DNA of 40,109 nucleotides from a virus: UHGV virus genome UHGV-0115014; one strand, 5' to 3'. Below, piece by piece: positions 13,306-36,049 of the stretch. The stretch's first letter is position 1. Each line of letters starts with the position of its first letter. Position numbers and translations under genes: made by a program. The notes beneath the pieces are model-generated. The model saw only the letters and a program-made list of their open reading frames with translations, searched no databases and was not told where the DNA came from.

Positions 13306-13512
13306 ATGTGCATGGGTAGCTCACCATCAGTGCCTGCAACACCAGAAGTTCAGGCAGCACCACAGGAGCAGGATGCCGCCGTTGTTGATGCCCGCGACGA
13401 AGAAACACGTCGCCGTCGCGCTGCTGCTGGTCGTAGTTCTACGCTGCTTACCGGTTCTCAGGGCGACACATCAACTGCTAATACCAGCGGTAAAACGCTG
13501 CTTGGTCAGTAA
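13306..13512 (+). CDS. Small virion-associated protein (possibly T7 gp6.7-like)
   Basis: 68 aa, MC N-terminus, Ala/Gln/Arg-rich, GGAG SD, immediately upstream of portal gene. Confidence 0.4.
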   Translation: MCMGSSPSVPATPEVQAAPQEQDAAVVDARDEETRRRRAAAGRSSTLLTGSQGDTSTANTSGKTLLGQ

Positions 13513-13526
13513 CCGGAGTCATTGAA

Positions 13527-15206
13527 ATGGCGGAAACAACTAAAGAGCGATTGAACAAACAGTTCGCACAACTTGAAAGCGAGCGTCAGTCGTTCGAGCC
13601 GCACTGGCGCGAGTTGAGTGATTACATCAACCCGCGTGGTTCCCGCTTTCTGACTTCTGAGGTCAACCGTAACGATCGACGCAATACACGCATTATTGAT
13701 TCGACCGGGACTATGGCGGCGCGCACTCTCGCCAGCGGCATGATGTCAGGCATCACAAGCCCCGCGCGTCCGTGGTTTCGCCTGGCTACGCCAGATCCTG
13801 AAATGATGGATTATGGCCCTGTTAAGTTGTGGCTTGAGGCGGTGCAGAACCGCATGAACGATATGTTCAATAAGTCGAATCTCTATCAGTCGCTGCCGCA
13901 GTTATACGGAAGCCTCGGCACATACAGCACTGGCGCAATGGCGGTGCTGGATGATGACGAGGACATCATTCGTACAATGCCATTCCCGATAGGAAGTTAC
14001 TACCTGGCTAACTCACCTCGTGGCAGTGTGGACACCTGTTTTCGCAAGTTCTCTATGACTGTTCGTCAGCTTGTTCAGGAGTTCGGACTAAATAACGTCA
14101 GCGAATCCGTAAAAAGCATGTGGGAAAGCGGCACCTACGAGAAGTGGATTGAAGTGATGCATTCGGTTTACCCGAACATTGACCGCGATACATCGAAGCT
14201 GGATAGCAAGAACAAGCCATTCAAATCGGTTTATTACGAGGTTGGTGGCGATAACGACAAGTTGTTGCGTGAGTCCGGATTCGATGAGTTTCCAATTATG
14301 GCTCCGCGCTGGGAAGTTAACGGCGAAGATGTTTATGGATCATCATGCCCGGGTATGCTGGCGCTTGGACCTGTTAAGGCATTGCAGCTTCTCCAGAAGC
14401 GCAAGTCGCAGTTGATTGATAAAGCCACCAATCCGCCGATGGTTGCTCCGACTTCCCTCAAGAATCAGCGCGCCTCCCTTCTTCCTGGCGACATCACGTA
14501 TATCGATCAGATTACTGGTCAGGATGGCTTCAGGCCTGCTTATCTGGTTAACCCCAGTACAGCAGATTTGGTGGCAGACATTCAGGACACTCGTCAAATC
14601 ATTAACAGCGCCTACTTTGTCGATCTGTTCATGATGTTGCAGAACATCAATACCCGCTCGATGCCTGTTGAAGCGGTGATCGAAATGAAAGAAGAAAAAC
14701 TTCTGATGTTGGGGCCGGTTCTGGAGCGTCTGAACGACGAATGTCTTAACCCTCTCATTGACCGCGCTTTCTCGATGATGGTGCGTAAAAACATGCTGCC
14801 GCCACCGCCTCACGCGATGGAAGGTATGCCCCTGAAGGTCGAATACATTTCCGTCATGGCTCAGGCGCAGAAGTCTATCGGCCTGTCCAGTCTGGCGTCC
14901 ACGGTTAACTTCATTGGTCAACTTGCGCAAGCGAAACCAGAAGCTCTCGACAAACTCAACGTTGATCAGGCGATCGATGCATTCGCTGATATGTCCGGAG
15001 TGTCTCCAACCGTCATTGTTCCGCAGGAACAGGTTGAGCAGGCTCGCCAGCAACGGGCACAGCAACAACAGCAGCAACAAATGATGGCGATGGGGATGGC
15101 GGCGGCACAGGGTGCCAAGACGCTAAGCGAAGCTAAAACTTCGGATCCGAGTGTTTTGTCAGCTATGGCGAATGCAGTTAGTGGTCAGGGTGGGCAATCA
15201 CAATGA
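13527..15206 (+). CDS. Portal protein (podovirus / T7 gp8-like head-to-tail connector)
   Basis: 559 aa; blocks MAARTLASGMMSGITSPARPWFRL and the Gln-rich C-terminus QARQQRAQQQQQQQMMAMGMAAAQGA parallel T7 gp8 as recalled; follows terminase genes. Confidence 0.8.
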   Translation: MAETTKERLNKQFAQLESERQSFEPHWRELSDYINPRGSRFLTSEVNRNDRRNTRIIDSTGTMAARTLASGMMSGITSPARPWFRLATPDPEMMDYGPVKLWLEAVQNRMNDMFNKSNLYQSLPQLYGSLGTYSTGAMAVLDDDEDIIRTMPFPIGSYYLANSPRGSVDTCFRKFSMTVRQLVQEFGLNNVSESVKSMWESGTYEKWIEVMHSVYPNIDRDTSKLDSKNKPFKSVYYEVGGDNDKLLRESGFDEFPIMAPRWEVNGEDVYGSSCPGMLALGPVKALQLLQKRKSQLIDKATNPPMVAPTSLKNQRASLLPGDITYIDQITGQDGFRPAYLVNPSTADLVADIQDTRQIINSAYFVDLFMMLQNINTRSMPVEAVIEMKEEKLLMLGPVLERLNDECLNPLIDRAFSMMVRKNMLPPPPHAMEGMPLKVEYISVMAQAQKSIGLSSLASTVNFIGQLAQAKPEALDKLNVDQAIDAFADMSGVSPTVIVPQEQVEQARQQRAQQQQQQQMMAMGMAAAQGAKTLSEAKTSDPSVLSAMANAVSGQGGQSQ

Positions 15207-15499: not shown

Positions 15500-15501
15500 T
15501 C

Positions 15502-16197
15502 ATGAATTTATTTGAGCGTTTGCTGTATCGCCGTCTTTGCAATGAGCAACCAGTCGATGGTGGAGCAGCTCCGGCTGCGTCAGAACCGTCAGCGCCTGCA
15601 GGTGATAACCCTGCTCCAGTTGGTGATCCATCACAACAAGAAGGTGATAAGCCGCAACCTGTTGCTGATGGCGATAAACCTGCTGATGACAAAAAGCCTG
15701 AAAGCGATAAGCAGGGTGAAAAAAAGGACGGCGATAAACCGGATGGTGCGCCGGAGAAGTACGAGTTTCAGGCTGCCGAAGGCGTAGAGCTGGATACAGA
15801 AGCGTTGAAGGAATTCGAGCCAGTGGCGCGAGAACTTAACCTGACCAACGAGCAAGCGCAAAAGCTGGTTGATGCTTATCCGAAGATTCTGGCAGGTGTT
15901 CAGCAGCGCCAGGCAGAAGCCTGGCAGAAAACAACCGAGCAGTGGGCTGCGGATGTAAAAGCTGACAAAGAAATCGGTGGCGACAAGTTGATTTCTAACC
16001 TTAGCGCCGCACAGCGTGCGCTTGACCAGTTCGGGACACCTGAACTCAAAGAATATCTGAACACCACCGGGCTGGGTAATCACCCTGATCTGGTCAAAAC
16101 GTTCGTGAAAATCGGAAAGGCGATGTCTGAAGATGGCATGGTCACCGGTGGTAATGAAGGCCAGCGTAGTGCGGCCGAAGTGCTCTATGGCAAATAA
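15502..16197 (+). CDS. Putative scaffolding protein
   Basis: Acidic Pro/Asp/Lys-rich N-terminal half and helical C-terminal half; between portal and capsid genes; ATG 15502 preferred over GTG 15496 because of CAGGAG SD spacing. Confidence 0.5.
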   Translation: MNLFERLLYRRLCNEQPVDGGAAPAASEPSAPAGDNPAPVGDPSQQEGDKPQPVADGDKPADDKKPESDKQGEKKDGDKPDGAPEKYEFQAAEGVELDTEALKEFEPVARELNLTNEQAQKLVDAYPKILAGVQQRQAEAWQKTTEQWAADVKADKEIGGDKLISNLSAAQRALDQFGTPELKEYLNTTGLGNHPDLVKTFVKIGKAMSEDGMVTGGNEGQRSAAEVLYGK

Positions 16198-16211
16198 GAG
16201 AGGAAATGACA

Positions 16212-17198
16212 ATGGCTGTTAAAGGCTTAACTGCGCTAACGCTGGCTGACTGGGGTAAGCGCGTCGATCCAAACGGGAAAGTCGATAAGATTATCGAGCT
16301 TCTCAGTCAAACCAACCCAATCCTTCAGGATATGCCTTTTGTTGAAGGAAACCTTCCTACCGGACACCGAACCACCATTCGTTCTGGTTTGCCTTCCGCT
16401 ACCTGGCGTTTGCTGAACTATGGCGTACAACCGAGCAAATCAACAACGGTGCAGGTCACTGATTCCATTGGCATGCTGGAAACCTATGCTGAAGTCGATA
16501 AGTCTCTGGCTGATCTGAACGGTAATACTGCCGAATTCCGCCTGTCTGAAGACCGAGCATTTATTGAAGCGATGAATCAGGCGATGGCGCAGACGCTGTT
16601 TTACGGTGATTCCAGCGTTAACCCTCAGCAGTTTATGGGACTGTCCTCCCGCTATTCCAGCCTGTCTGCGGGTAATGCTCAGAACATCATTGATGCTGGT
16701 GGCACGGGTACAGATAACACTTCAATCTGGTTAGTGGTGTGGGGCGAAAACACCGTGCATGGCATCTTCCCGAAAGGGCAGAAGGCTGGCATCCAGATGG
16801 AAGATAAAGGCCAGGTGACACTGGAAGATGCTAATGGCGGCAAGTACGAAGGTTATCGTACCCATTATAAGTGGGACAACGGGCTGACATTGCGTGACTG
16901 GCGCTATGTTGTTCGCATTGCAAACATCGATGTCAGCAATCTTGACGCTCCTTCTACTGCTGCGAATATCGCAAAACTGATGATTCGTGCCCTTCATCGA
17001 ATCCCAAATCGTGGGATGGGACGTCCTATTTTCTACATGAACAGAACCATTAACGAAGTGCTTGACCTGCAATCTCTGGAGAAGAGTTCTCTGGCGATCA
17101 GCGTGAAAGAGACAGAAGGCGAATGGTGGACAGAACTTCGTGGTGTGCCGATTCGCGAAACTGACGCACTTCTGGAAACAGAAGCCCGCGTGGTGTAA
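16212..17198 (+). CDS. Major capsid protein
   Basis: About 329 aa between scaffold and decoration-like genes; ATG 16212 has better SD spacing than 16206; not T7 gp10-like in sequence. Confidence 0.65.
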   Translation: MAVKGLTALTLADWGKRVDPNGKVDKIIELLSQTNPILQDMPFVEGNLPTGHRTTIRSGLPSATWRLLNYGVQPSKSTTVQVTDSIGMLETYAEVDKSLADLNGNTAEFRLSEDRAFIEAMNQAMAQTLFYGDSSVNPQQFMGLSSRYSSLSAGNAQNIIDAGGTGTDNTSIWLVVWGENTVHGIFPKGQKAGIQMEDKGQVTLEDANGGKYEGYRTHYKWDNGLTLRDWRYVVRIANIDVSNLDAPSTAANIAKLMIRALHRIPNRGMGRPIFYMNRTINEVLDLQSLEKSSLAISVKETEGEWWTELRGVPIRETDALLETEARVV

Positions 17199-17249
17199 CG
17201 CCTGTTATTAACCTGTGGGTCGTAACAGACCCACTAATGGAGAAAGAAG

Positions 17250-17687
17250 ATGATCACCGACAAACTGTTGATGTTCTCCGAAGCTCAGGCGGTTACGAAT
17301 ACCGCGGCTTCTACTGACGTAATCGATCTCGGTCCAATTGACGGAAACCGTCGCGATATCGGTGTGGGTTACCCGCTTGAGTTTTGGGCGCTGGTTAACG
17401 AAGCCGCCACGGCAAGTGGTGAGGCAACTGTAAACATCCAGTTGCAGACGAGTGAGAATAACAGCTCATGGTCCACTATTTATGATAGTGGCGCACTGGC
17501 AAAGGCCACCCTGACAGCAGGTAAGCGAGTTGTTTCTGCAAAGGTGCCAGCCGGTGTTCAGCGATATCTGCGTGTTAACTACTCCGTCGCAACTGGCCCA
17601 CTAACGGCTGGCAAATTCACTGCGGGTATCAATCTTGATGTTGATGCCAATACGCCGTATCCGATCCGCTCAAAAGTAACTGGTTAA
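17250..17687 (+). CDS. Putative capsid decoration / cement protein
   Basis: 145 aa, directly after capsid gene with GGAG SD; function inferred from position only. Confidence 0.4.
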   Translation: MITDKLLMFSEAQAVTNTAASTDVIDLGPIDGNRRDIGVGYPLEFWALVNEAATASGEATVNIQLQTSENNSSWSTIYDSGALAKATLTAGKRVVSAKVPAGVQRYLRVNYSVATGPLTAGKFTAGINLDVDANTPYPIRSKVTG

Positions 17688-17697
17688 GGTGATATTG

Positions 17698-18033
17698 ATG
17701 TCAGGTGAGAAACCAAGATACCGCGTTCTGCGCCTCTCTCATATCCATAACACTCTGTGGCCGGAGGGGGCAGAAATCGAATACGAAGGTGAGCCTGGTA
17801 GCGCACTGGAACCTGTTAACGATGCAGCCAGACAGGCAAAAGCAAAGGTAGCAGGAAAGGTGTCTATGGCAGCAACCAGCACCAAAATCATCAACGATGT
17901 GTCAGATGATGGTGAACTGGATAAGCTCCGTGAAGAGTACGAATTGCTCTTTAACGAGAAGCCACACCATAACGCCAAAGCAGAAACGCTCCGCGAGAAG
18001 ATCGCAGATAAGCGTAAAGAACTGGGCGTGTAA
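17698..18033 (+). CDS. Hypothetical protein
   Basis: Table ORF 17689..18033; ATG 17698 preceded by AAGGTGA; followed by intrinsic terminator. Confidence 0.5.
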   Translation: MSGEKPRYRVLRLSHIHNTLWPEGAEIEYEGEPGSALEPVNDAARQAKAKVAGKVSMAATSTKIINDVSDDGELDKLREEYELLFNEKPHHNAKAETLREKIADKRKELGV

Positions 18034-18045
18034 GCCTCGCGGATG

Positions 18046-18083: not shown

Positions 18084-18407
18084 ATGGAACTCGTAAACCT
18101 CAAAACCGGCACTGACAGCTACCAGGATGAGAGCGGAGAAACCAGAACTCGCGATGAATACCCGTGGGGGCTGTGCATCACGCTGAATAACGACACATTG
18201 AATAAGCTGAAGGCGCAACCTCAGGGCGTCGGAACAGAAGTGATGATAACTGCAAAGGCTGTTATTCGAGGCCTGTCTGCCAGAGAAACTGACGATGGCG
18301 TTAATCGCAGCGCCGATCTGCAGATCACTGATATGGCGATCGCTCCTGTTTCCGGGGATGTAGAAAAATCAGCGGCTGAAACTCTGTACGGTAACGGAGG
18401 TGAGTGA
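18084..18407 (+). CDS. Hypothetical virion protein
   Basis: Table ORF 18078..18407; ATG at 18084 downstream of GCAGGAG SD. Confidence 0.5.
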   Translation: MELVNLKTGTDSYQDESGETRTRDEYPWGLCITLNNDTLNKLKAQPQGVGTEVMITAKAVIRGLSARETDDGVNRSADLQITDMAIAPVSGDVEKSAAETLYGNGGE

Positions 18408-19012
18408 TGGCCTCTGTAGTAGAGATCTGCAATCGTGCGCTGTCCAATATTGGCAACAGCCGCAGCATTAACAGCCTGACGGAAGCCAGCAAGGAAGCGG
18501 GGGAATGTTCGCTGCACTTTGAGGCCTGCCGTGATGCTGTGCTTTCTGATTTTGACTGGAACTTTGCTACCAAACGCGTGGCGCTTGCAGATACGAGCAA
18601 TCCACCGCCTGACTGGGAATATGCGTACCAGTACCCGTCAGATTGTCTGCGCATTACTGAAATTATGCTTCCTGGTGTACGCAATCCAACAGCATCAATG
18701 CGCGTTCAGTACGAAGTTGGTGCAGACACCAACGGAACAGGAAAGTTGATCTACACAGACCAGCCTCAGGCATGGCTCAAGTATGTCTCTCGCGTTTCAG
18801 ATGTGAACATGTTTGATGCCATTTTTATGGAGGCGTTGGCCTGGCGTCTTGCGGCAGCTATTAACATGGCGCTGACTGGGAATGCAGACCTCGGTACGTT
18901 TGCCCTCAATATGTACAATCGCGTGATTCTTAGTGCTGGCTCGCATAGCCAGAATGAATCACAGGAACCACAGCCACCGGTTGACGAGTTTACCATTGCG
19001 AGGTTGTCCTGA
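18407..19012 (+). CDS. Tail tubular protein A-like adaptor (T7 gp11-like)
   Basis: About 200 aa; N-terminal region VEICNRALSNIGNSRSINSLTE resembles T7 gp11 N-terminus pattern (recalled); stop/start overlaps with both neighbours. Confidence 0.5.
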   Translation: MASVVEICNRALSNIGNSRSINSLTEASKEAGECSLHFEACRDAVLSDFDWNFATKRVALADTSNPPPDWEYAYQYPSDCLRITEIMLPGVRNPTASMRVQYEVGADTNGTGKLIYTDQPQAWLKYVSRVSDVNMFDAIFMEALAWRLAAAINMALTGNADLGTFALNMYNRVILSAGSHSQNESQEPQPPVDEFTIARLS

Positions 19013-21477
19013 TGGCTATCAGTTGGATCCAGCCCAGCTTTGCCGGTGGTGAGATTGGACCGTCTTTGTACGGTCGTATCGACATGGCGAAGTACCAGGT
19101 GGCATTGCGCAAGTGCGATAACTTTATCGTGCGGCAGTATGGCGGCGTTGAGAATCGACCTGGTACGCGTTTTGTCGGTGCCGCCAAATACCCAAATCGG
19201 AAATGCCGCCTGATCCCGTTCCAGTTCTCGACGGTTCAGACTTATGCTCTGGAGTTCGGACACCAGTACATGCGCGTTATCAAAGATGGTGCGTTGGTGC
19301 TGAACAGCAGCAATGTTATTTATGAAATTGCCACGCCATATACTGAAGCCGATCTGTTCCGAATTAAATTCACGCAAAGCGCAGACGTGCTTACGCTGGT
19401 TCATCCGGCATACCCGCCGAAAGAGTTGCGCCGCTATGCGCATGACAACTGGCAACTGGTTGATGTGGTAACGAAGAACGGGCCATTTGAAGATATCAAT
19501 ATTGACGAGTCAGTGACGGTTTATGCCAGCGCCAGCACCGGGACAATTACGTTAACGGCAAGCGCCTCAATTTTTGGCGCGGAGCAGGTAGGCAAATTGT
19601 TCTATCTGGAACAGCCTGCAGTGGATTCTGTGCCGGTATGGGAAACCAGTAAGAGTACGTCGATTGGCGATATTCGCCGTGCAGACAGTAACTACTATCG
19701 CGCCGTTACAGCAGGCAAAACAGGCACTTTGCGCCCTTCGCATACAGAAGGCACATCATGGGATGGCTGGGGCGGATCCGGTGATGATGATACCGGCATT
19801 GAGTGGGAGTATCTGCACAGTGGTTTTGGCATTGCCCGTATCTCTGCTGCAAATGGAACTACTGCAACTGCCGAGGTGATTTCCTATATCCCTTCGCAGG
19901 TAGTTGGCGAGGATAATGCCAGCTATAAATGGGCTAAATATGCCTGGAACAGTATTAACGGTTATCCTGGCACTGTTGTTTATTATCAACAACGCCTTTA
20001 CTTCGCCGCATCGACTGCGTTCCCTCAGACTATCTGGGCCAGCCGTACCGGGGATTATAAGGATTTTGGCAAAAGCAATCCTACGCAGGATGACGACAGA
20101 ATTATCTACACCTATGCCGGGCGTCAGGTTAATGAGATCCGTCACCTGATTGATGTTGGTTCGCTGGTGGCGCTGACTTCCGGAGGTGAGTACGTCATCA
20201 CTGGCGACCAGAACAAAGTGCTTACCCCATCATCATTTGCATTCAGCTCTCAGGGATCAAATGGCTCGAGCAATGTCCCACCAATTGCCGTGGCGAATAT
20301 TGCTCTGTTCGTCCAGGAGAAAGGCAGTGTTGTCCGTGATCTGGCCTACTCATTCGATGTTGACGGCTATCAGGGGAACGACCTGACCATCCTTGCCAAT
20401 CATCTTTTTCAGAAGCACAGCATTGTTGACTGGTGCTTCTCGATTGTCCCTTACTCCAGCGCCTTCTGCATTCGTGATGACGGTAAATTACTGGTGATGA
20501 CCTATTTGCGTGATCAGCAGGTTTTTGCATGGGCACCACAATCCAGTACCGGAAAATATGAAAGCACATGCAGTATCAGCGAAGGCAATGAAGATGCGGT
20601 GTATTTCGTCGTTAACCGAACCGTTAACGGGCAAACAGTGAGATACATAGAGCGACTGTCCAGCCGTTTATTTACCAGCGATGAAGATGCTTTCTTTGTT
20701 GATTCTGGCCTTAGCTATGATGGAAGAAATACGTCTGACAGAACGATGACCATCACTGGTGGTTCTGGTGAATGGGATTACCGTGCGGAATATACAATCA
20801 GTGTTTCTGGTGGTGCGTACTTCACCAGTAGTGATGTCGGCGCGCAACTACAGTTCCCTTATACCGGAACTGATCCTGATACTGAAGTGTCAAAAGAATT
20901 ACGTTGCGACATTATTTCTGTAACCAGCAATACCGCTGTAGTGGTTCGTGCTAACAGGAACGTCCCGCCATCCCTCAGGAATGTGGCCACCACGAACTGG
21001 CAGATGGCGCGCCGGACATTTGGAGGCCTGTCTCATCTTGAAGGCCAGACCGTAAACATTCTCTCTGATGCGAACGTGGAACCACAGAAAGTGGTTTCCG
21101 GAGGTGCCGTCACGCTGGAATCACCTGGGGCTGTAGTGCACATCGGCCTGCCAATAACTGCTGAATTCGAAACACTGGATATCAACATTAACGGACAGGA
21201 AACGCTGCTGGACAAAAAACAGGTGATCCCGTCCGTTACTCTGGTTGTGAATGCCAGTCGCGGCATCTGGGCGACTACGCCCGGCGGTAAATGGTACGAA
21301 TATCCACAGCGTGAATTCGAGTTCTACGATGATCCTGTTGATGATGCTACCGGAAAAGTAGAAGTGAAACTGGACAGTAACTGGGGCAAAAACGGGCGTG
21401 TAAAAATCCGTCAGCTTGACCCGTTGCCGCTGTCTGTTCTTGCCGTTATTCCTCGCCTTACTGTTGGGGGATTCTGA
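19012..21477 (+). CDS. Tail tubular protein B-like / nozzle protein (gp12-like position)
   Basis: 821 aa directly after gp11-like gene; size and position as in podovirus tail modules. Confidence 0.5.
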   Translation: MAISWIQPSFAGGEIGPSLYGRIDMAKYQVALRKCDNFIVRQYGGVENRPGTRFVGAAKYPNRKCRLIPFQFSTVQTYALEFGHQYMRVIKDGALVLNSSNVIYEIATPYTEADLFRIKFTQSADVLTLVHPAYPPKELRRYAHDNWQLVDVVTKNGPFEDINIDESVTVYASASTGTITLTASASIFGAEQVGKLFYLEQPAVDSVPVWETSKSTSIGDIRRADSNYYRAVTAGKTGTLRPSHTEGTSWDGWGGSGDDDTGIEWEYLHSGFGIARISAANGTTATAEVISYIPSQVVGEDNASYKWAKYAWNSINGYPGTVVYYQQRLYFAASTAFPQTIWASRTGDYKDFGKSNPTQDDDRIIYTYAGRQVNEIRHLIDVGSLVALTSGGEYVITGDQNKVLTPSSFAFSSQGSNGSSNVPPIAVANIALFVQEKGSVVRDLAYSFDVDGYQGNDLTILANHLFQKHSIVDWCFSIVPYSSAFCIRDDGKLLVMTYLRDQQVFAWAPQSSTGKYESTCSISEGNEDAVYFVVNRTVNGQTVRYIERLSSRLFTSDEDAFFVDSGLSYDGRNTSDRTMTITGGSGEWDYRAEYTISVSGGAYFTSSDVGAQLQFPYTGTDPDTEVSKELRCDIISVTSNTAVVVRANRNVPPSLRNVATTNWQMARRTFGGLSHLEGQTVNILSDANVEPQKVVSGGAVTLESPGAVVHIGLPITAEFETLDININGQETLLDKKQVIPSVTLVVNASRGIWATTPGGKWYEYPQREFEFYDDPVDDATGKVEVKLDSNWGKNGRVKIRQLDPLPLSVLAVIPRLTVGGF

Positions 21478-21941
21478 TGATCGATGTTCAAATTATTCCC
21501 GCTACCGAAGAGCATCTTCAGATGATTTTGCCGGATGTTCGTCAGGCTGATATTGACGAACTGTATGCGGTATCACTGATGACTACCGAAGATGCGCTGC
21601 GTGTTGGTCTGCGTACTGCGACTATGGCCTGGTCAGGATTTGCGAACGGAGAACTGGTAACCATGTTTGGCGTATCTCCGGCGTCAATGATCGGTGGCAA
21701 TGGTACGCCCTGGCTGGTCGGAACCGGCCGTATCGAAAAATATCAGAAGACATTTCTTCGCCACTGCCGCCCTGTATTGCAGCAGATGCTGGCAGTTTAT
21801 CCGCGCCTGGAAAACTATGTCGACGAGCGAAACCATGTTGCCAAAGCATGGCTGCACTGGCTTGGATTCAGGCTTGAAGAAGCCGCGCCTTATGGTGCTC
21901 TTGGTCTTAATTTCCACAGATTTCACATGGAGAGAAAATAA
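21477..21941 (+). CDS. Putative internal virion protein (gp13-like position)
   Basis: 154 aa; ATGA overlap with upstream gene. Confidence 0.4.
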   Translation: MIDVQIIPATEEHLQMILPDVRQADIDELYAVSLMTTEDALRVGLRTATMAWSGFANGELVTMFGVSPASMIGGNGTPWLVGTGRIEKYQKTFLRHCRPVLQQMLAVYPRLENYVDERNHVAKAWLHWLGFRLEEAAPYGALGLNFHRFHMERK

Positions 21942-26798: not shown

Positions 26799-26803
26799 AT
26801 TAA

Positions 26804-29278: not shown

Positions 29279-29307
29279 GGAAGTGTTGTGTTTTTAATTA
29301 TTTTGAG

Positions 29308-29463
29308 TGTGATAATTTCTGGTGGATTGTTATTTATTGACCGCTACAAATATTTTCTTAACCCTCAGACTCAAGCTATTTGCTGGTTCATCTTTGTTGT
29401 GCAGGGAGTAGTTCTTGTTGCAAGCCTTATTGAGGGGAGGCCTCTGATTTTTAATGGGTAAAT
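29308..29463 (+). CDS. Small hydrophobic protein (51 aa)
   Basis: Unlisted small ORF with GTG start; one TM-like segment AICWFIFVVQGVVLVASLI. Confidence 0.2.
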
Positions 29464-29473
29464 AGGTGACTAC

Positions 29474-29770
29474 ATGCAAGCTATAGGATTCATTGTTTAT
29501 ATCGTCGTTGGTCTTTTTCAGTTGGCAGCAATTATGGCTGGGCTTGAATCATGGTGGGGGTTGCACTGGGTAATTGCAGCTCCCGTTGCTTTTGTCGTGA
29601 GTTATATTCCGTTTGTTGGAGCGATTGTTGGTATGATTGGCGCTGTGGATGTATGGCGGTGGGAGTGGTGGCAGGCTGGCCTTCTCTTCTTTGGTGGGAT
29701 CATCTTTGCTATTGTCTGCGGTGGAATGTCATCATTTTTCGAACGGCTATCATTCAGAAAAGGAACGTGA
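29474..29770 (+). CDS. Small integral membrane protein (about 3 TM segments)
   Basis: 98 aa, strongly hydrophobic; stop codon lies inside a GTGACATGTCAC palindrome. Confidence 0.5.
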   Translation: MQAIGFIVYIVVGLFQLAAIMAGLESWWGLHWVIAAPVAFVVSYIPFVGAIVGMIGAVDVWRWEWWQAGLLFFGGIIFAIVCGGMSSFFERLSFRKGT

Positions 29771-29778
29771 CATGTCAC
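29767..29778. repeat. 12-bp perfect palindrome GTGACATGTCAC (copy 3)
   Basis: Exact palindrome containing stop of membrane protein gene 29474..29770 and ATG of plus-strand ORF 29772..29915. Confidence 0.6.
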
Positions 29779-29801
29779 AGGCCGCTTTCGCGGCCTTGTT
29801 T

Positions 29802-29963
29802 TTAACGAATGCCACCGCCACCCGGGCGGGAATCCGCAGAACGCCCACCGCAGCGGGAGCCGTCAGCGGCAGTATCGCTGTCGTGCTGACAACGACCGGC
29901 AAAGGCCTGAGTTGAAGCTACCAGAGACAACAAAACGAACAGTGCAGCAAATGCTTTTTTCAT
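29802..29963 (-). CDS. Small secreted peptide (signal peptide plus 31-aa Cys-containing mature part)
   Basis: MKKAFAALFVLLSLVASTQAFA signal peptide with AxA cleavage motif; TTGACG-N16-TATAGA promoter-like sequence upstream on minus strand; antisense-overlaps alternative plus-strand ORF 29772..29915, so strand assignment is uncertain. Confidence 0.35.
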   Translation of the reverse strand: MKKAFAALFVLLSLVASTQAFAGRCQHDSDTAADGSRCGGRSADSRPGGGGIR

Positions 29964-30032
29964 TGTGAAATTTCCATCTATAATCCACCTCAATGTGGCG
30001 TCAATGAGTGTAGCACTGACTTTTGTTTCGTC

Positions 30033-30057
30033 CACAAAAAAGCCCGCGGCGCGGGCT
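30033..30057 (-). terminator. Intrinsic terminator after YafO-like gene
   Basis: Minus-strand GCCCGCG-CCG-CGGGC hairpin followed by TTTTTTGTGG; overlaps stop codon. Confidence 0.6.
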
Positions 30058-30602
30058 TATTCCTTCCATTTATCAGAAAAAAGATCTTCTTCTAAAGGCA
30101 TTGGTTCTGTTTTTGTTTTCTCAAAGAATTGATAACTGATAGTGATTGCTGCCTCTTTAAACTCTTCTTGCTCAGTTATGTTGTGGGCATCTGCGTCAAC
30201 AAAAAACATAACCAGCGCATCACGATTGTGATTTACCGAATAAACTAAAAAGCAATTACTTGTTGGTATGCATTTTACTTGCACAGACGCTATTTTTTTC
30301 CATGCATCCCAAGATGATTTTTTACCAGTGTGTTTTTTATCACTATCTTCTGGAATATAGTCTTGGTTATCGACATGAGTATGCCTGACATTTAGTTTAA
30401 GCATTTCTGTCGGACGAGCAAATGCAGCATCTTTACCAAGAGATGGATGGTATCCCGTTTTCCAATACTGGGTAAAGGCATCAGATACTTTCTTCAGCTC
30501 AAGATCAGATGCACAAAGGGCCGAGAAATTTTGCGTATGCAATACTCGACCCTTATATCTGACAATTTGATTTTTATCATTCTGCGACGCAGACGAACTC
30601 AT
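30057..30602 (-). CDS. YafO-family toxin-like protein
   Basis: Table ORF 30057..30629 with start at MSSSAS; region DAFTQYWKTGYHPSLGKDAAFARPTEMLKLNVRHTHV and FLVYSVNHNRDALVMFFVD aligns with E. coli YafO blocks ADFISYKRDGVLPDIFGRDALY...LIKFERVAHIHL and HLVYCQGAFDEQAWLLIAIL (recalled from memory); intrinsic terminator at 3' end. Confidence 0.45.
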   Translation of the reverse strand: MSSSASQNDKNQIVRYKGRVLHTQNFSALCASDLELKKVSDAFTQYWKTGYHPSLGKDAAFARPTEMLKLNVRHTHVDNQDYIPEDSDKKHTGKKSSWDAWKKIASVQVKCIPTSNCFLVYSVNHNRDALVMFFVDADAHNITEQEEFKEAAITISYQFFEKTKTEPMPLEEDLFSDKWKE

Positions 30603-30756
30603 AATTTTCCTTATTGTTACGAGAATCAAAGAAAGCGCGGGATACGCGACTTGCGTGATCTTTTGTCATAGTAACTTTTACGCACTCTACGCTTCCATTG
30701 AAAGAACGTCTTGCGGCAGCTTGCGCTCTACGCATCTGCAATTTTTCGTTTCGCAT
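30577..30756 (-). CDS. Small basic ORF upstream of YafO-like gene (candidate antitoxin or leader peptide)
   Basis: Unlisted 59-aa ORF MRNEKLQMRRAQAAARRSF...; overlaps start of YafO-like gene in another frame; speculative. Confidence 0.2.
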   Translation of the reverse strand: MRNEKLQMRRAQAAARRSFNGSVECVKVTMTKDHASRVSRAFFDSRNNKENYEFVCVAE

Positions 30757-30816
30757 GACATTACCTCATATCTCATAAGTTCATTACACGGATTAATAAA
30801 AATGAAACCAATCCGT

Positions 30817-30831
30817 TTACCCTTGAGGTAA
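30817..30831. promoter_or_regulatory. TTACC-N5-GGTAA palindrome upstream of YafO-like cassette
   Basis: TTACCCTTGAGGTAA about 60 bp upstream (minus strand) of small ORF start 30756. Confidence 0.4.
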
Positions 30832-30903
30832 TAGTACGCTATTCACCCACAGTCTGCAATCTGTACAGAATTATTTAAAGGCACATCCCTGTGCCGCCGC
30901 CCG

Positions 30904-31599
30904 TCAGAAGAACCCTGCCTTGTCGTTGATGTACTCCGCGTGCGTCTGGATATCACGCAGGCATTTGCTCACACCGACGATGTAACAGAACATGGTGGTC
31001 AGCTCCGCCGCCGCGCCCGATACGTCGTGCCCGTCGTCCTGTAACTGGTTCAGCAGATTCATCAGCAGTGAGTTCTCCGTCAGGCCGAGAACACCAGACG
31101 GAGAATGAATCAGGCTGCGGTAGCCGGGCTTCAGCGGGGCACTGTAGGTTTTGTTCTCTATCTTCATTGCCTGCATTACTGCTGACGCCGTGGCGTTGGC
31201 TACCTGGTCGGCAACCATCTTTATGCGTTCTTCCTGCGGTAGCGAGTTTTTAATGTAACTTCCGGTGCGGCGGATCTGAGGAAGAACCTCACCTGTAACC
31301 CATTTACGAAAGCGGTAGGGGATAGTGCCTGGTGTCACCGCATCGCGGCAGCGGAGGATCAGTGTGTAGAGGCCTGACTCGGAGATGATGATCGATTCTT
31401 GCTCACCGCCAGGGGTGTCGGTTGAAGCGACGCCCTTCTCATCATCATCAAGTTTTCGAACAGCATCTCGATGGTTTGCTATGCCTATAGCCCGACAAAC
31501 ATCTGAAGCGATAAACCATGGCTCACCATTAATGACGATTACTCGTATATCGGCTTGGGATTCGAAAGAAAAAATGGACGTGCTTTTTGTAGCTGTCAT
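30904..31599 (-). CDS. Bro-N domain protein (antirepressor-like)
   Basis: 231 aa; N-terminal block VIVINGEPWFIASDVCRAIGIANHRDAVRKL is a Bro-N/antirepressor-type signature; C-terminal 70 aa are paralogous to ORF 32747..33004. Confidence 0.7.
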   Translation of the reverse strand: MTATKSTSIFSFESQADIRVIVINGEPWFIASDVCRAIGIANHRDAVRKLDDDEKGVASTDTPGGEQESIIISESGLYTLILRCRDAVTPGTIPYRFRKWVTGEVLPQIRRTGSYIKNSLPQEERIKMVADQVANATASAVMQAMKIENKTYSAPLKPGYRSLIHSPSGVLGLTENSLLMNLLNQLQDDGHDVSGAAAELTTMFCYIVGVSKCLRDIQTHAEYINDKAGFF

Positions 31600-31868
31600 A
31601 GTGGTTACCTTTTAGTCAGGTTAATCACCACTACCGACGCCAATCGGTTGGTGGTGAACTGTGCAGGGTTGGCGTAACCGGCTAAAAGGACCCGGCGCAC
31701 CTTTCGGTGCCCCCACACAGCCCACCATAATACGAATGTGGCCGTGCTATACGCATAAAAAAACCGCTTGCGCGGTGAATGCGCCTTTTAGTAATCCGGG
31801 ACGCCAATCCCGGCACTGGATTTTGCCAGTGCCCGATTACTATGGCACAAGAGGAGTGCAATGTAAAT

Positions 31869-31976
31869 TTACCGCAAAGGTAATGATAAACGCGGAGAAA
31901 TATTAAAATCAACCGCATTTGGTTGATTGCGTTTAACGCTTGATCACCTGAAAGCAAGATATTACCTTTAAGGTAA
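31869..31976. promoter_or_regulatory. Pair of TTACC-N5-GGTAA palindromes upstream of zinc-ribbon membrane protein gene
   Basis: TTACCGCAAAGGTAA (about 31869-31883) and TTACCTTTAAGGTAA (about 31962-31976), the latter 20 bp before ATG 31997. Confidence 0.45.
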
Positions 31977-31996
31977 TGTTATTGTGAGGAAAAGCA

Positions 31997-32725
31997 ATGG
32001 AAGTTTTCTGGATAGTTGTTGGTGTTGTTACGGTGATTATTTACGTTATCAACCAGAACAGGACTAAGGTCTCTGATCGCACAGTCGTTAATCATCGCAA
32101 AACGATAAAGACCGAAGATGGAGAAATAACGATTAATCGTACACAGGTGATAGACCACACCTCCACTCAGTTTCAAAAAACTGGAGGTAATGCGCCTAAT
32201 ATTTCCGCACCTCCTGCTTATGATAGTGCGGTAATCCAGACATATTATAAACAGCAGGAGTTAGCAAAAGAGAGGCAACTGATTCAGCCAAAGCCATTTA
32301 CAGCAGAGCTTCCACCTGGAGTGTCAACGCGTCCGGCATATCATGGAAGATTCCCTGGTGATGACATATCGTCTCAGTCATCTAAAAAAGCACCTCAGGC
32401 AGTATCAGAGCCAGCAAGAATACCTTCTGTATCGCCGCCAAAAGAAGAATCAGCTAACAGAGTTTCAAGTGGTAGCAAGCAGTGCTTGCGATGCAGAATA
32501 AACCTTCCATATGAAAAATTCAGGAAATCGTCAAAAAATCCAGATGGATTGACTAAGTGGTGTGCAAGGTGTCTCGATGGTCCAAAGAATACACGCCATA
32601 TGAAGTGGTGCCCAATTTGTAATGTCCGCAGAAAACGAACCAGCTTTTACCCTAATAATCAAAATGCGGATGGCTTAATGGCATGGTGCAAAACGTGCTG
32701 GGACGAGCACAAAGCGAAACGATAG
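31997..32725 (+). CDS. Membrane-anchored protein with two C-terminal zinc-ribbon repeats
   Basis: N-terminal TM helix VFWIVVGVVTVIIYVI, Pro/Ser-rich linker, then duplicated modules CLRC...DGLTKWCARC and CPIC...DGLMAWCKTC; several in-frame AGA/AGG codons; followed by intrinsic terminator. Confidence 0.55.
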   Translation: MEVFWIVVGVVTVIIYVINQNRTKVSDRTVVNHRKTIKTEDGEITINRTQVIDHTSTQFQKTGGNAPNISAPPAYDSAVIQTYYKQQELAKERQLIQPKPFTAELPPGVSTRPAYHGRFPGDDISSQSSKKAPQAVSEPARIPSVSPPKEESANRVSSGSKQCLRCRINLPYEKFRKSSKNPDGLTKWCARCLDGPKNTRHMKWCPICNVRRKRTSFYPNNQNADGLMAWCKTCWDEHKAKR

Positions 32726-32748
32726 GCCGCTCTAGCGGCCTTTTCTTT
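32724..32748 (+). terminator. Intrinsic terminator after zinc-ribbon membrane protein gene
   Basis: GGCCGC-TCTA-GCGGCC hairpin followed by TTTTCTTT. Confidence 0.6.
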
Positions 32749-33004
32749 ATGTGGTTTGTTTTCGTAATTGTTCGGCACAATAGTCGAGATGTGTTTGCAA
32801 ATCCTGCATAGACATCTGTGAGCTGGTGACGTAGTTAATCAGTGCAGTCAGTTCGGCAAGTGGGCCATCGACATTAAATCCATCCTTATCGAGATCCCGG
32901 AGTAATTTCATCAAGTGCGATCCCTCCACCAGTGACCTGACGCCTCCCGGCGTGTGAATCCTTTCGGTAAATCCGTCTTCCAGTGGATAGTGATACTGCT
33001 GCAT
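32747..33004 (-). CDS. Small protein homologous to the C-terminal domain of the Bro-N protein
   Basis: Table ORF 32747..33022 with ATG start at MQQYHY after GGAGAAG SD; about 40-45 percent identity over 70 aa with the C-terminus of 30904..31599 (LMKLLRDLDKDGFNVDGPLAELTALINYV...DLQTHLDY versus LMNLLNQLQDDGHDVSGAAAELTTMFCYI...DIQTHAEY). Confidence 0.55.
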   Translation of the reverse strand: MQQYHYPLEDGFTERIHTPGGVRSLVEGSHLMKLLRDLDKDGFNVDGPLAELTALINYVTSSQMSMQDLQTHLDYCAEQLRKQTT

Positions 33005-33080
33005 CTTATCTTCTCCATGCAATAACTGTATATTTATACAGTATCAAATAATTTGTTTGCTATCCAGCACGTTTTGCAAA

Positions 33081-33095
33081 TTACCCGAAAGGTAA
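33081..33095. promoter_or_regulatory. TTACC-N5-GGTAA palindrome upstream of tail fiber gene
   Basis: TTACCCGAAAGGTAA about 105 bp before ATG 33200, followed by ATGTGGTT at 33128-33135. Confidence 0.4.
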
Positions 33096-33199
33096 TATCT
33101 GTTCATATTCACAGTCTTTCTATCCATATGTGGTTTTTCAGGTAATAGAATAACCAGATATGCGGCGCAACGGGTGCTGCGACTATCTGGAGATTTAAC

Positions 33200-36049
33200 A
33201 TGACGGTCTCAACCGAAGTTGACCACAACGAATACACAGGTAACGGCGTTACGACATCATTTCCGTATACCTTCCGTATTTTCAAAAAATCCGACCTGGT
33301 TGTTCAGGTGTCTGACCTTAACGGTAACGTAACAGAACTAGTGCTGGATGCTGGTTATACAGTAACAGGGGCGGGAACTTATAGTGGCGGTGCAGTGGTT
33401 CTTCCGTCGCCGCTTGCTGCTGGCTGGCGAATCACGATAGAGCGTGTGCTTGATGTGGTGCAGGAGACTGATCTTCGCAATCAGGGAAAATTTTTCCCCG
33501 AAGTTCATGAAGATGCATTTGACTACCTGACGATGCTGATCCAGCGATGTTTTGGGTGGTTCAGACGTGCATTGATGAAACCATCTTTGCTTGCAAAATA
33601 TTACGATGCAAAGCAAAACAGAATTTCCAATTTGGCCGATCCGAAGAACTCTCAGGATGCTGTAACAAAAAAATATGTGCAAGACTTATATAGTGGGGTA
33701 GTTAGGCCTGATAACATCGACAACGCAATGTATGTTACAGATCTCGCTAATGGCAAATATGACAGCTCTCGCTTGGACATGTCTGTCGGGTATGAGATAA
33801 AAACCATTTCAAACTTTGTCAGGATTAATGGGGCTGTTTATCGTGTTACTCCTGCTGCAGTCGGCATAGTGACAGAAATAACCTCGCGTTACATTTTGGC
33901 CGGAGGGAAAAAAAGCTACCTGTCTCATATTTCCAGGCATGTCAGTGGTACGCGTAGGCCGCTGAACTGGAAATTAGAATTCAGCATCATAGACGATGAG
34001 ATTACCGCAGATCTTAAAGATCAGTATGGTTACACGACCATGGGATTTCAGGGGATTTACATAGACAGCAATGATGGAATGGTATACATCGGCTGGCAGA
34101 CGCTAGACCCCGCATCGGTATGGGTTACGGTGCATGACTGGGTAACAGGAGCATTGGTAACACGTCTTCATTTTCCGAATAACGTTGGTGCACCAGAAGG
34201 CATCCACGTTTACCGAGTGGCAGGACAGCGTTACATCCTGCTGCCGTACAGCCCATCTCGCACTATCAGAATTTACCCTATCGAAGATCCGCGTACGCTG
34301 GTTGATAAAACGCAGATTACAAACTTCACTGAATCAACACGCCTTGGAGTGCGATATCAGTTTAGTGGCTTTGGTAATACCCTGATATACGAAAATGCGG
34401 ATATGGGTTGGCCGAAAATTTTTGATGTTGAGACAGGTGTATCCAATATCTTTAACACACTGGATATTAACAGCCTTATAGAAGGATCTTACAGTCCAAT
34501 GGGGACTATTACGGTTGATGCAAATGTTGGAGGTCGCGGAGCCGGTAAACCAAAACGGCAGGGTGTCGCTCTTGGTTCTCAACGGATATTTGCTGGTATT
34601 GGTGCATCTACCACGGCGGGATCTGGAAATACTTTCGCAGGGTTGCAGGGTTATATTGAGTACAGCCTTAATGGTTCAGAATTAGGTCAGTACCTGCTGT
34701 CACCTGCAGATTTCAAAACATACTGGGATAGTTATTCAGGGAAGAGTGTTTACTCCACTGAAAATGAGGGGGTGCAGTCTTGTGATATTTCTGGCTCTGA
34801 GGAATTGTATCTTCTACAGTCTATTCGCTATGACAATGGGGGCGGATCAAATTATAGGACTTTAAACATCATTCGCGCTAACTGTCCATCTAATGAACCT
34901 GGAACAGTAGACATGACTCCGCTATCCAATGCCTCATCACAGTTATTTAACCCTCGCGGAAGGGTGATTAACGCTGGCCGTCACCCTGTAAACCCGGCTG
35001 ATGGTATTGCGCTATTTACATCGGCACAGGCTATTTGTGACTATTTGCGGAATACAGATGCAGGTAGATATGTGACATATCTTGAACAGGATATGCCACT
35101 GTTTGAAGGTGGGCCATCTGCGCCAGGACAGATGACGCTGCCAGCATTCTGCCTATTGCAGATCGACTTCATCAACGGCGATACCTGGGAAATTACAGTT
35201 AATGGAACTAACAGGGCTAATAATTATACAGGAAGGATTTCCAAAAACGGCGGGTACAACTCTTTTACTAAGGTGTCCTCCCGCAGCATGTCGATTCTCG
35301 GATCCCCTGGTCTGGTTGATGTATCAATTCGCTCACCTAACTCACTAAATCTTCCAGAATTTGCTGGAGACTGGTCTACTGGTGTAAGTATAGGAGCTGC
35401 AGGTGGGGTGACAAACTGGCAGCCAGAAGGAACAGGTAACGGAGCATTATGGGAGTCAGGATATGCAAAAAACCGTGTGTTGCAGATATTCATGTCCACA
35501 ACATCAAAACTGTTCTTCCGCTACGCAGACGATGCTATTCGCGCAGGTAACACAGGCTGGGCTGAGGCATGGTCGTCGCTGAACACGACCGTCGATTCAA
35601 GTGGTTTCATCAAAAAAGCCTCTCCGGTTGTGAAGATTTTCTCAGACGGTAGTAGTGAAACAAATCGCGAATCAGATGGGGTAACCGTCACACGGCTGGC
35701 ATTAGGGGAATATCTGATTGAGGGTTGCGTAGGTCTGAATGCAGATGCTTCATGGGGGGGGATTGATGGTGGATTTGAAATACCGCAGGACCGAAACAAG
35801 CAGCCGCTCATCTGGCTGGATTATGTTGTTAACCAAGATGGCTCTGTGTTGGTGAAAACGTTTCACCGCACTCATGATAACTCGCCAGTTTTTGCACGTA
35901 ACGACATCCCTGGTGTTTCGAACGGTGACCCGATCGACATTCCTGCTAATCAGTTCGTTTCTGTGCGAGTACAGATGCCTGAGGATTCAGCATGGAATAA
36001 GCTTAAGGAACAACTCAATAAGGCTGAACCAATGGAAAAAAATAAGTAA
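33200..36049 (+). CDS. Tail fiber / tailspike protein with T7 gp17-like N-terminal adaptor domain
   Basis: 949 aa; N-terminal 150 aa (EYTGNGVTTSFPYTF...VVQVSDLNG...LDAGYTVTG...GWRITIERV...NRISNLADPKNSQDAV) parallels the T7 gp17 N-terminus pattern as recalled; the remaining 800 aa are not recognisably related. Confidence 0.7.
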   Translation: MTVSTEVDHNEYTGNGVTTSFPYTFRIFKKSDLVVQVSDLNGNVTELVLDAGYTVTGAGTYSGGAVVLPSPLAAGWRITIERVLDVVQETDLRNQGKFFPEVHEDAFDYLTMLIQRCFGWFRRALMKPSLLAKYYDAKQNRISNLADPKNSQDAVTKKYVQDLYSGVVRPDNIDNAMYVTDLANGKYDSSRLDMSVGYEIKTISNFVRINGAVYRVTPAAVGIVTEITSRYILAGGKKSYLSHISRHVSGTRRPLNWKLEFSIIDDEITADLKDQYGYTTMGFQGIYIDSNDGMVYIGWQTLDPASVWVTVHDWVTGALVTRLHFPNNVGAPEGIHVYRVAGQRYILLPYSPSRTIRIYPIEDPRTLVDKTQITNFTESTRLGVRYQFSGFGNTLIYENADMGWPKIFDVETGVSNIFNTLDINSLIEGSYSPMGTITVDANVGGRGAGKPKRQGVALGSQRIFAGIGASTTAGSGNTFAGLQGYIEYSLNGSELGQYLLSPADFKTYWDSYSGKSVYSTENEGVQSCDISGSEELYLLQSIRYDNGGGSNYRTLNIIRANCPSNEPGTVDMTPLSNASSQLFNPRGRVINAGRHPVNPADGIALFTSAQAICDYLRNTDAGRYVTYLEQDMPLFEGGPSAPGQMTLPAFCLLQIDFINGDTWEITVNGTNRANNYTGRISKNGGYNSFTKVSSRSMSILGSPGLVDVSIRSPNSLNLPEFAGDWSTGVSIGAAGGVTNWQPEGTGNGALWESGYAKNRVLQIFMSTTSKLFFRYADDAIRAGNTGWAEAWSSLNTTVDSSGFIKKASPVVKIFSDGSSETNRESDGVTVTRLALGEYLIEGCVGLNADASWGGIDGGFEIPQDRNKQPLIWLDYVVNQDGSVLVKTFHRTHDNSPVFARNDIPGVSNGDPIDIPANQFVSVRVQMPEDSAWNKLKEQLNKAEPMEKNK

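Follow-up and report, generated by a model that had tools for sequence, protein, structure and literature searches.

What kind of phage lies in the 40,109-bp stretch of viral DNA catalogued as UHGV-0115014, and is its combination of T7-like tail genes with lambda-like early genes a new one? The original prediction, made from the letters of the sequence, described the interval 13306-36049 of this window (by which we mean the whole 40,109-bp stretch, with approximately 50% G+C) as the structural part of a mosaic temperate phage in which lambdoid control and replication genes are combined with a T7-like portal, tail and tail-fibre module, in the absence of a phage RNA polymerase. Our analysis indicates that the window almost certainly holds a prophage of the genus Uetakevirus, from the phiV10/epsilon15 group, integrated at the 3' end of guaA in an Escherichia coli chromosome and followed on its right by approximately 1.9 kb of host DNA. 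The distant kinship of its tail with that of T7, in a phage without its own RNA polymerase, is real but has been published already, and the plan of the whole genome is known.

The assignment is carried by comparison with complete genomes. In megablast searches of an annotated phage collection, the Uetakevirus phiV10 aligned to 95% of positions 1-25000 at 97.5% identity, while over 13306-36049 phiV10, HEMP4 and phiv142-3 covered 78-81% at approximately 97% identity, with more distant matches to Enterobacter phage Tyrion (81%) and to the Salmonella phages PAT1 and epsilon15 (75-76%). Together with vB_EcoP_ZX5 (ZX5), PAS61 and TL-2011b, the first three are close relatives of the element, with approximately 97% nucleotide identity over most of the genome. 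The criterion of the International Committee on Taxonomy of Viruses for a genus is approximately 70% nucleotide similarity, and the phiV10 figures lie above it. Positions 25000-40109 are covered by phiV10 over 50% of their length at 93.8% identity, and the parts without cover are the receptor-binding domain of the fibre, a block of accessory genes and the host DNA. The chromosome of E. coli TO6 matches 100% of positions 1-25000 at 99.9% identity, and at least 80% of that interval is held by 402 of 5,426 complete E. coli genomes. Synteny is gene for gene, both with annotated phiV10 and with the annotation of TO6 by the Prokaryotic Genome Annotation Pipeline (PGAP): a leftward early operon is followed by a rightward operon for replication, packaging and structure, and the phiV10 annotation and PHROG matches give the Uetakevirus order of terminase, portal, capsid, tail, internal proteins, fibre, lysis, integrase and early genes. 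The comparison with temperate podoviruses that the original prediction proposed as a check has therefore ended in near-identity to a short-tailed group, of which ZX5, a 97%-identical relative, shows a 60-nm head and a 15-nm tail by electron microscopy (PMC9782041).

The boundaries of the element point the same way. The 17-bp core ATTGAGTGGGAATGATT has one exact match in the window, which forms attR, and TO6 carries it again, as attL, where guaA has its 3' end, approximately 158 bp leftward of position 1; a search for an att repeat within the window alone accordingly found none. The same core has been published for phiV10, epsilon15 and ZX5 (PMC9782041). In TO6 the element sits between guaA and yfgI, so that the right end of the prophage is position 38223, the window begins inside the prophage and positions 38224-40109 are host DNA. 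In every testable respect, then, the window is a member of Uetakevirus. It has the integrase-to-lysis gene order, att core, guaA site and tRNA-Arg gene of the phiV10 group, and differs from phiV10 in several places: the receptor-binding part of the fibre beyond aa 168 is replaced, the fibre gene is not followed by an oac gene, a phosphatase gene stands in place of phiV10 p32, part of the ea22/eae block has decayed and the block is reduced in length, RecT and the nuclease are encoded separately, and the accessory block carries a YafO-like gene and a gene for a 242-aa protein.

How deep does the resemblance to T7 go? Each T7-like claim was tested against the proteins of T7 itself. In pairwise phmmer and tblastn comparisons, 17 T7 proteins gave nothing significant against the window and its proteins, and nothing significant was found in the window for T7 gp5 DNA polymerase or gp4 primase-helicase. 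Because pairwise comparison finds nothing, the T7 likeness exists at the profile or fold level only, which argues for an old lineage and not for a fresh hybrid. The T7 "sequence patterns" of the original prediction thus hold for profiles and folds but not for pairwise similarity. At that level the portal is the clearest case. T7 gp8 belongs to the same Pfam family, PF12236 (379 bits), the two proteins match PHROGs 332 and 449 reciprocally, and the window protein scores 597 bits against the portal of the Cobetia marina phage Carin-1 (8CK0_A); the gp8-family portal expected of a T7-type tail machine is present. For the adaptor the link is structural. Foldseek matched its AlphaFold model to T7 gp11 (7BOX_M) with an E-value of 1e-6, a probability of 1.00 and a template modelling (TM) score of approximately 0.6, and also to T7 gp11 in 6R21 and 7EY7 (probability 1.00) and to many other T7-type adaptors. 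The Carin-1 "Connector" (8CK1_E) is a sequence homologue (E 2.6e-26, 33% identity) on which the model superposes at a TM score of 0.83. The adaptor has no Pfam family, does not match PF17212 and has no PHROG in common with gp11, and hhalign comparison of its profile with the single T7 gp11 sequence was negative. As modelled, the adaptor is of gp11 type by fold and not by sequence family. The nozzle belongs to a very large family of 18,308 representatives and does not match PF25675. Its profile aligned weakly with that of the T7 gp12 family in hhalign (P 2.7e-4, probability 42-44%) over gp12 residues 335-465, a segment that lies largely inside the central domain, residues 354-556, through which epsilon15 gp12 was matched to T7 gp12 by comparison of hidden Markov models at E<1e-10 (PMC4819975).

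The proteins that follow the nozzle extend the parallel. Directly after it come a gp13-like protein, which shares a PHROG with T7 gp13, and a gp14-like protein, which PGAP independently names "virion core protein, T7 gp14 family"; three large internal proteins are next, matched by phrog_992, phrog_1145 and phrog_684, with roles taken from published work (PMC4819975) through phiV10/epsilon15 synteny. One of the three, of 862 aa, carries a muralytic domain at aa 274-423 that matches 9VVP_L Gp29 and the endolysin 7Q47, and T7 gp16 likewise carries a muralytic domain. The fibre is attached by an anchor of gp17 type, since its aa 1-162 and aa 5-150 of T7 gp17 both match the N-terminal region of phrog_1640, 27277 and 2710, and it scores 103 bits against the N-terminus of the Carin-1 fibre.

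The 862-aa protein is also where a different reading of the element could begin. It matches phrog_2276, "tail length tape measure protein", with 115 bits over aa 214-446, as would be expected of a misread tape-measure or sheath gene in the prophage of a siphovirus or myovirus. That stretch, however, is the muralytic domain, common to an endolysin and to the N-terminus of phage E1004 Gp29; the shared domain explains the tape-measure match, which we rejected, and the matches that run the full length of the protein are to phrog_992 and epsilon15 gp15. No tube, sheath or baseplate genes were seen, and the close relatives are short-tailed by electron microscopy (PMC9782041). The original prediction had named structural matches to siphovirus or myovirus families, or a tape-measure or sheath gene beyond the window, as findings that would overturn it, and neither was found. 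Because the prophage ends at its att sites, beyond which lie guaA and yfgI, nothing can hide outside it, and we give a siphovirus or myovirus almost no credence.

The head separates the element both from T7 and from the other common temperate short-tailed phages of enterobacteria. As originally predicted, the major capsid protein is not gp10-like: it belongs to the epsilon15 GP7 family and not to the gp10 family PF21703. Among structures in the PDB it scores 430 bits against 3J4U, which we take to be the capsid of Bordetella phage BPP-1, 299 bits against Carin-1 (8CJZ) and 285 bits against epsilon15 gp7 (3J40). A gene for a Bbp16-type cement protein directly follows the capsid gene, and the terminase has no similarity to T7 gp18 or gp19 in tblastn and phmmer comparisons. 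Could the element instead be a P22-like phage (Lederbergvirus)? It is a temperate podovirus with an exchangeable receptor-binding domain and an accessory block beside its spike gene, and Hardies et al. (2016) placed P22 in the same broad "transient tail" group (PMC4819975). But the near-identity of the genome is to phiV10 and not to P22-like phages, the portal and capsid belong to the T7 gp8 and epsilon15 GP7 families, and the significant fold matches of the adaptor are labelled Carin-1, LME-1, T7 and other non-P22 podophages, with none labelled P22. Profile searches showed neither a tail set of P22 gp4/gp10/gp26 type nor a P22-type portal; the structural genes are neither lambda- nor P22-type. 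A P22-like identity is accordingly extremely improbable, and the assignment to the phiV10/epsilon15 group stands.

Within that group, epsilon15, a model system for cryo-EM, shares the architecture, gene order, gp7 capsid family and gp10 staple of the element, with 75-76% DNA identity over the head-tail genes and a fibre anchor that is 71% identical, and differs in host and tailspike; the window capsid scores higher against 3J4U than against epsilon15 gp7. These capsid scores, with the Bbp16-type cement gene, would make BPP-1 a closer match than the type phage epsilon15 for the head module of the phiV10 branch.

A phage with a T7-type tail might be expected to bring the T7 transcription system with it. 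The original prediction reported no open reading frame (ORF) for a single-subunit RNA polymerase, and we likewise found no trace of T7 gp1 in the window (tblastn, best E 1.7) and no polymerase domain in the seven ORFs of at least 400 aa for which the Pfam scan gave an outcome, whether a match or no match. Transcription of the prophage would therefore have to be by host RNA polymerase. The original prediction went further and proposed a distributed system of palindromes through which host RNA polymerase would be regulated. In favour of such a dedicated system, the right half of the window has more terminator-like hairpins than expected (35 vs 18.9 +/- 4.3), and two hairpins share a stem. The strong hairpins (5842-5861, 6873-6892, 12723-12758, 29779-29796, 30040-30058, 32724-32741 and 38246-38273), however, are intergenic and GC-rich, are followed by T-runs and are unrelated in sequence, and no repeated palindrome family was found in the window. 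The left half shows no enrichment (25 vs 19.9 +/- 4.7), and in the phiV10 record similar boundaries between genes carry annotated rho-independent terminators. A dedicated palindrome system is therefore very unlikely, and the palindromes look like ordinary intrinsic terminators.

The two hairpins with a common stem, 29779-29796 and 32724-32741, have the same 7 bp (AGGCCGC...GCGGCCT) but differ in their loops. As a pair they flank the accessory block, which separates the last internal-protein gene from that of the fibre, and they may mark the edges of modules at which recombination takes place.

The left arm is where the lambdoid description applies, and it does so in part. A repressor with two helix-turn-helix (HTH) motifs is divergent from a Cro-like gene, with a promoter-like site at 6567-6595 near the pair; the phiV10 record describes its homologue of the repressor, p40, as resembling the putative repressor of epsilon15, and the repressors of ZX5 and phiV10 are reported to be identical in sequence (PMC9782041). 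An initiator gene with iterons is followed by a P-family helicase loader, as in a lambda-type replication module. The initiator matches phrog_1032 with 363 bits and the O-like phrog_391 weakly (70 bits). Six iteron-like repeats lie within its gene, between the segments for the HTH and DnaT-like domains, an arrangement as in lambda O, and the cluster at 7472-7624 is probably the origin. RecT, an exonuclease VIII-like nuclease and a holin-endolysin-Rz cassette complete the likeness to lambdoid phages such as lambda, phi80 and the Shiga toxin (Stx) phages, with which the element also shares small patches of DNA. As predicted from sequence, the early genes are thus lambda-style in organisation and in several protein families. 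Unlike in those phages, the integrase is of P4 type (PGAP names it "tyrosine-type recombinase/integrase" in TO6, and its phiV10 homologue is assigned to the INT_P4 family), the initiator has a DnaT-like C-terminus and the structural genes are entirely different. DNA in common with true lambdoid phages is limited to a remnant of approximately 90 bp and the phosphatase gene, which is 79% identical to phi80 ppp; the whole early arm is conserved with other Uetakeviruses instead. No N or Q antiterminator family was found among the ORFs scanned, which took in part of the small ones. Lambda-style repressor/Cro, replication, recombination and lysis genes, as in the original prediction, are therefore present, but its lambdoid integrase is not, and the lambdoid DNA is minimal.

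The remnant lies in a region, 9339-9780, of decayed Eae/Ea22-like sequences that PGAP annotates as two partial pseudogenes in TO6; positions 9479-9569 (approximately 90 bp) are 94-98% identical to Stx-converting and other lambdoid phages. A 12-base difference in length between the window and TO6 falls between approximately 9277 and 9995, an interval that includes the Eae/Ea22 region. The RecT and nuclease ORFs are separate and overlap by 4 nt, and their summed length of 586 aa is exactly that of the phiV10 coding sequence (CDS) annotated as a "RecE-RecT fusion" (phiV10 29722-31482), which reflects either a frameshift difference or an annotation or sequencing issue in the phiV10 record.

Taken together, these two arms could suggest a recent chimera between a lambdoid prophage and a lytic T7-like phage (Autographiviridae), with subsequent loss of the RNA polymerase. 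The early region does carry lambda-family proteins (P, RecT, the phosphatase and the Eae/Ea22 remnant), and the late region does follow T7: portal, scaffold, capsid, adaptor, nozzle, gp13, gp14, large internal proteins and fibre are collinear with T7 genes 8-17, with the portal and gp14 Pfam families, the gp13 PHROG, the adaptor fold and the fibre-anchor PHROGs in common. However, the lack of pairwise similarity to any T7 protein implies ancient divergence, the lambdoid-shared DNA amounts to the approximately 90 bp and one phosphatase gene, and the same full architecture is found in phiV10, Tyrion, PAT1, epsilon15 and approximately 400 E. coli prophages. What defines the Autographiviridae is missing: there is no single-subunit RNA polymerase, the genome is not a lytic one with T7 DNA polymerase and primase-helicase (it has an integrase, a repressor and att sites), and it lacks the gp10-type capsid and the gp18/gp19 terminase. 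Unlike in T7, the terminase genes also lie upstream of the portal gene, whereas those of T7 come after the fibre. A recent chimera is thus highly improbable, and the architecture is the standing genome plan of Uetakevirus, as in phiV10 and epsilon15, with an ancient link to T7.

This link has been described from several directions. Hardies et al. (2016) reported that tail and internal proteins of the epsilon15 group, to which they counted BPP-1 and BcepC6B, are related to those of T7, and united both in a "transient tail homology group"; the terminase and capsid of epsilon15, they noted, group with siphoviruses (PMC4819975). The solved virions of Carin-1 and LME-1 show this architecture too. 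The portal, connector, nozzle, fibre N-terminus and capsid of Carin-1 (8CJZ, 8CK0, 8CK1) are sequence homologues of the window proteins, and the paper on Legionella phage LME-1 (9EFK) calls Carin-1 "another T7-like virus" and describes portal, adaptor, nozzle and fibre-proximal domain as resembling those of T7 without sequence similarity. Carin-1 and LME-1 differ from the window in hosts and receptor-binding domains. The element is therefore of a named type that is common in E. coli, and the literature already covers its genome plan, where it integrates, its morphology and its distant kinship to the tail and ejection machinery of T7. The original prediction correctly recognised from raw sequence a temperate podovirus-type phage with a T7-type portal, adaptor, gp14-like and fibre-anchor module, probably including the nozzle, in T7 order, which profiles, folds and att sites bear out; what it had rediscovered, accurately, is the normal state of the epsilon15/phiV10 genus and not a new hybrid. 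The limits of its interval also coincide with real genes (the ATG of a 68-aa ORF, directly upstream of that for the portal, is at 13306, and the fibre gene of 949 aa has its stop at 36049), but the interval is not structural throughout, because 29.3-33.2 kb holds a block of moron and anti-repressor genes.

Several observations weigh against this account of a host-transcribed Uetakevirus prophage with a T7-type tail. The AlphaFold model of the nozzle, built from a shallow alignment of sequences 82-99% identical, has a predicted local distance difference test (pLDDT) score of 39 and does not directly support a gp12 fold, and the profile match of this protein to gp12 reaches only P ~3e-4 at 42% probability. 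Adaptor and nozzle belong to no Pfam or PHROG family common with T7, and the Pfam family for the T7 fibre N-terminus, PF03906, scored below threshold (19.6 vs 25.2 bits). Promoter-like sites are no more frequent than in shuffled sequence, so that any promoter map is tentative. Induction of this prophage and production of particles by it are predictions.

The receptor-binding part of the fibre is the one stretch of the element without a close counterpart in the phage collection, and its single local peculiarity. The predicted fibre is a three-part chimera. By segment-wise tblastn, aa 1-168 are 87-89% identical to other Uetakevirus anchors and 71% identical to epsilon15 gp20; aa ~170-680 match none of 50,697 phage records closely; and aa 684-949 are 47-59% identical to the C-termini of side tail fibres of the lambdoid siphoviruses HK544 and mEp234. 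Within this last segment, aa 783-928 match the fibre of phage SU10 (PF25670), whose C-terminus scores 209 bits. Unlike in phiV10, no oac O-acetyltransferase gene, of the kind that modifies the O-antigen, follows the fibre gene. These features raise the possibility, which we consider unlikely though not negligible, that the prophage uses a non-enzymatic fibre or an uncharacterised receptor instead of the O-antigen-degrading tailspike typical of epsilon15 and phiV10. If so, it would have a different mode of adsorption within a known modular receptor-binding system. Receptor-binding domains that can be exchanged on the conserved Uetakevirus anchor are documented, and host-range engineering has already made use of this platform (PMC10408124); the prophage provides a further such domain.

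We envision a life cycle in which the P4-type tyrosine integrase would recombine the 17-bp core and insert the genome at guaA. The two-HTH repressor would hold lysogeny, and the Bro-N anti-repressor could lift repression, as has been argued for ZX5. Replication would start from the iterons in the initiator gene with the help of the lambda P-type helicase loader, while RecT and the exonuclease VIII-like nuclease would promote recombination. Packaging, by a terminase unrelated to that of T7, would probably be of the headful kind, as an annotated similarity to P1 PacB suggests, into an epsilon15/BPP-1-type capsid, predicted to be HK97-like and to be stabilised by the Bbp16-type cement and the gp10-type staple. 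The short tail would consist of a presumably dodecameric portal, the gp11-fold adaptor and the gp12-type nozzle, with six presumably trimeric fibres held by the gp17-type anchor. The gp13-like, gp14-like and three large internal proteins may be ejected to form a trans-envelope conduit, and ejected internal proteins that bridge the envelope have been described for the T7 group and proposed for epsilon15 (PMC4819975). All transcription would be by host RNA polymerase, from sigma-70-type promoters and with intrinsic terminators between.

Table 1. Features of the prophage and flanking host DNA, in window coordinates
Feature	Position	Strand	Basis
Tyrosine integrase, P4-type per phiV10 annotation	50-1306	+	Pfam Arm-DNA-bind_3, Phage_int_M, Phage_integrase
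Ser/Thr phosphatase	1309-1968	-	Pfam Metallophos; PGAP name
MT-A70 DNA methyltransferase	1965-2615	-	Pfam MT-A70; PGAP name
PerC-family regulator	2608-2859	-	Pfam PerC 30 bits; PGAP name
AlpA-like HTH protein	3017-3265	-	Pfam Phage_AlpA 24 bits; PGAP name
RecT	3315-4256	-	Pfam RecT 152 bits
PD-(D/E)XK exonuclease VIII-like nuclease	4253-5074	-	Pfam DUF3799; phrog_412 "exonuclease VIII" 421 bits
Immunity repressor, two HTH motifs	5882-6466	-	Pfam HTH_3; PHROG transcriptional regulator families
Cro-like small regulator	6621-6851	+	phrog_35 "transcriptional repressor" 50 bits; divergent from repressor gene
Replication initiator	7218-8033	+	O-like N-terminus (Pfam HTH_36), DnaT-like C-terminus (Pfam DnaT)
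Six iteron-like repeats CCC(A/G)AAAACGGGA	7472-7624	.	Direct repeat family D1; spacing 18-45 bp
Lambda P-family helicase loader	8030-8815	+	Pfam PF06992 Phage_lambda_P 191 bits
Terminase small subunit	9995-10669	+	phrog_51/phrog_2 assignment of terminase pair
Terminase large subunit	10666-12141	+	phrog_51/phrog_2 assignment of terminase pair
tRNA-Arg, anticodon TCT	12802-12878	-	ARAGORN; in phiV10 too
Portal, T7 gp8 family	13527-15206	+	Pfam PF12236 622 bits
Scaffold/protease candidate, epsilon15 gp6 homologue	15502-16197	+	phrog_458 372 bits
Major capsid protein, epsilon15 gp7/BPP-1 type	16212-17198	+	PF20911 (epsilon15 GP7) 494 bits
Bbp16-type cement protein	17250-17687	+	Pfam Bbp16 165 bits; PGAP name
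Capsid-region protein without assigned function	17698-18033	+	
Epsilon15 gp10-type staple	18084-18407	+	Pfam Gp10-like 174 bits; PGAP name
Head-to-tail adaptor, predicted T7 gp11 fold	18404-19012	+	AlphaFold model pLDDT 86.6 and Foldseek
Tail nozzle (tubular tail protein B), probable T7 gp12 counterpart	19012-21477	+	Carin-1 "Tail Nozzle" 8CK1_A 729 bits
Internal virion protein A, T7 gp13-like	21477-21941	+	phrog_308 210 bits; T7 gp13 147 bits in phrog_308
Internal virion protein B, T7 gp14 family	21941-22486	+	Pfam PF24072 (T7_gp14) 31.2 bits vs cutoff 27
Large internal/ejection protein with muralytic domain	22486-24999	+	
Second large internal/ejection protein	24996-26798	+	
Third large internal/ejection protein, epsilon15 gp17/IVP-D (virion-internal protein D) counterpart	26804-29278	+	
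Non-structural moron/anti-repressor block	29474-33022	mostly opposite strand	Pfam and PHROG scans; PGAP names
YafO-like toxin gene	30057-30629	-	Pfam YafO_toxin 23.2 bits vs cutoff 25; PGAP YafO family toxin
Bro-N anti-repressor	30904-31599	-	
242-aa zinc-ribbon-like protein	31997-32725	+	phrog_6762
Accessory-block gene	32747-33022	-	
Tail fibre/spike	33200-36049	+	T7-type N-terminal anchor; central part; side-tail-fibre-type C-terminus
Lysis cassette: two holins, glycoside hydrolase family 19 (GH19) endolysin (36996-37625), Rz-type spanin (37622-38119)	36307-38119	+	Pfam Phage_holin_8, Phage_holin_3_7, Glyco_hydro_19, DUF2514; PGAP
attR core ATTGAGTGGGAATGATT, 17 bp, right prophage end	38207-38223	+	One exact match in window
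Host genes yfgI (38314-38853), yfgH (38869-39387), yfgG (39698-39889)	38314-39889	-	PGAP of 99.9%-identical TO6 locus; Pfam DUF5384, Gly-zipper

Some features of the structural and accessory regions deserve mention. NCBIfam gave no names for any structural protein, and the scaffold/protease candidate has no Pfam family, with a phiV10 counterpart annotated as similar to epsilon15p06. In the accessory block, no antitoxin is annotated upstream of the YafO-like gene. The C-terminal half of the 242-aa protein has weak zinc-ribbon, endonuclease VII, HNH and Lar-like matches, and nothing equivalent is annotated in that interval of phiV10. The tRNA-Arg(TCT) gene, located between those of the terminase and the portal, has its phiV10 counterpart at 2853-2929, where the phiV10 RefSeq record, which annotates no tRNA, places an overlapping hypothetical CDS, p04 (2672-2923), on the opposite strand.

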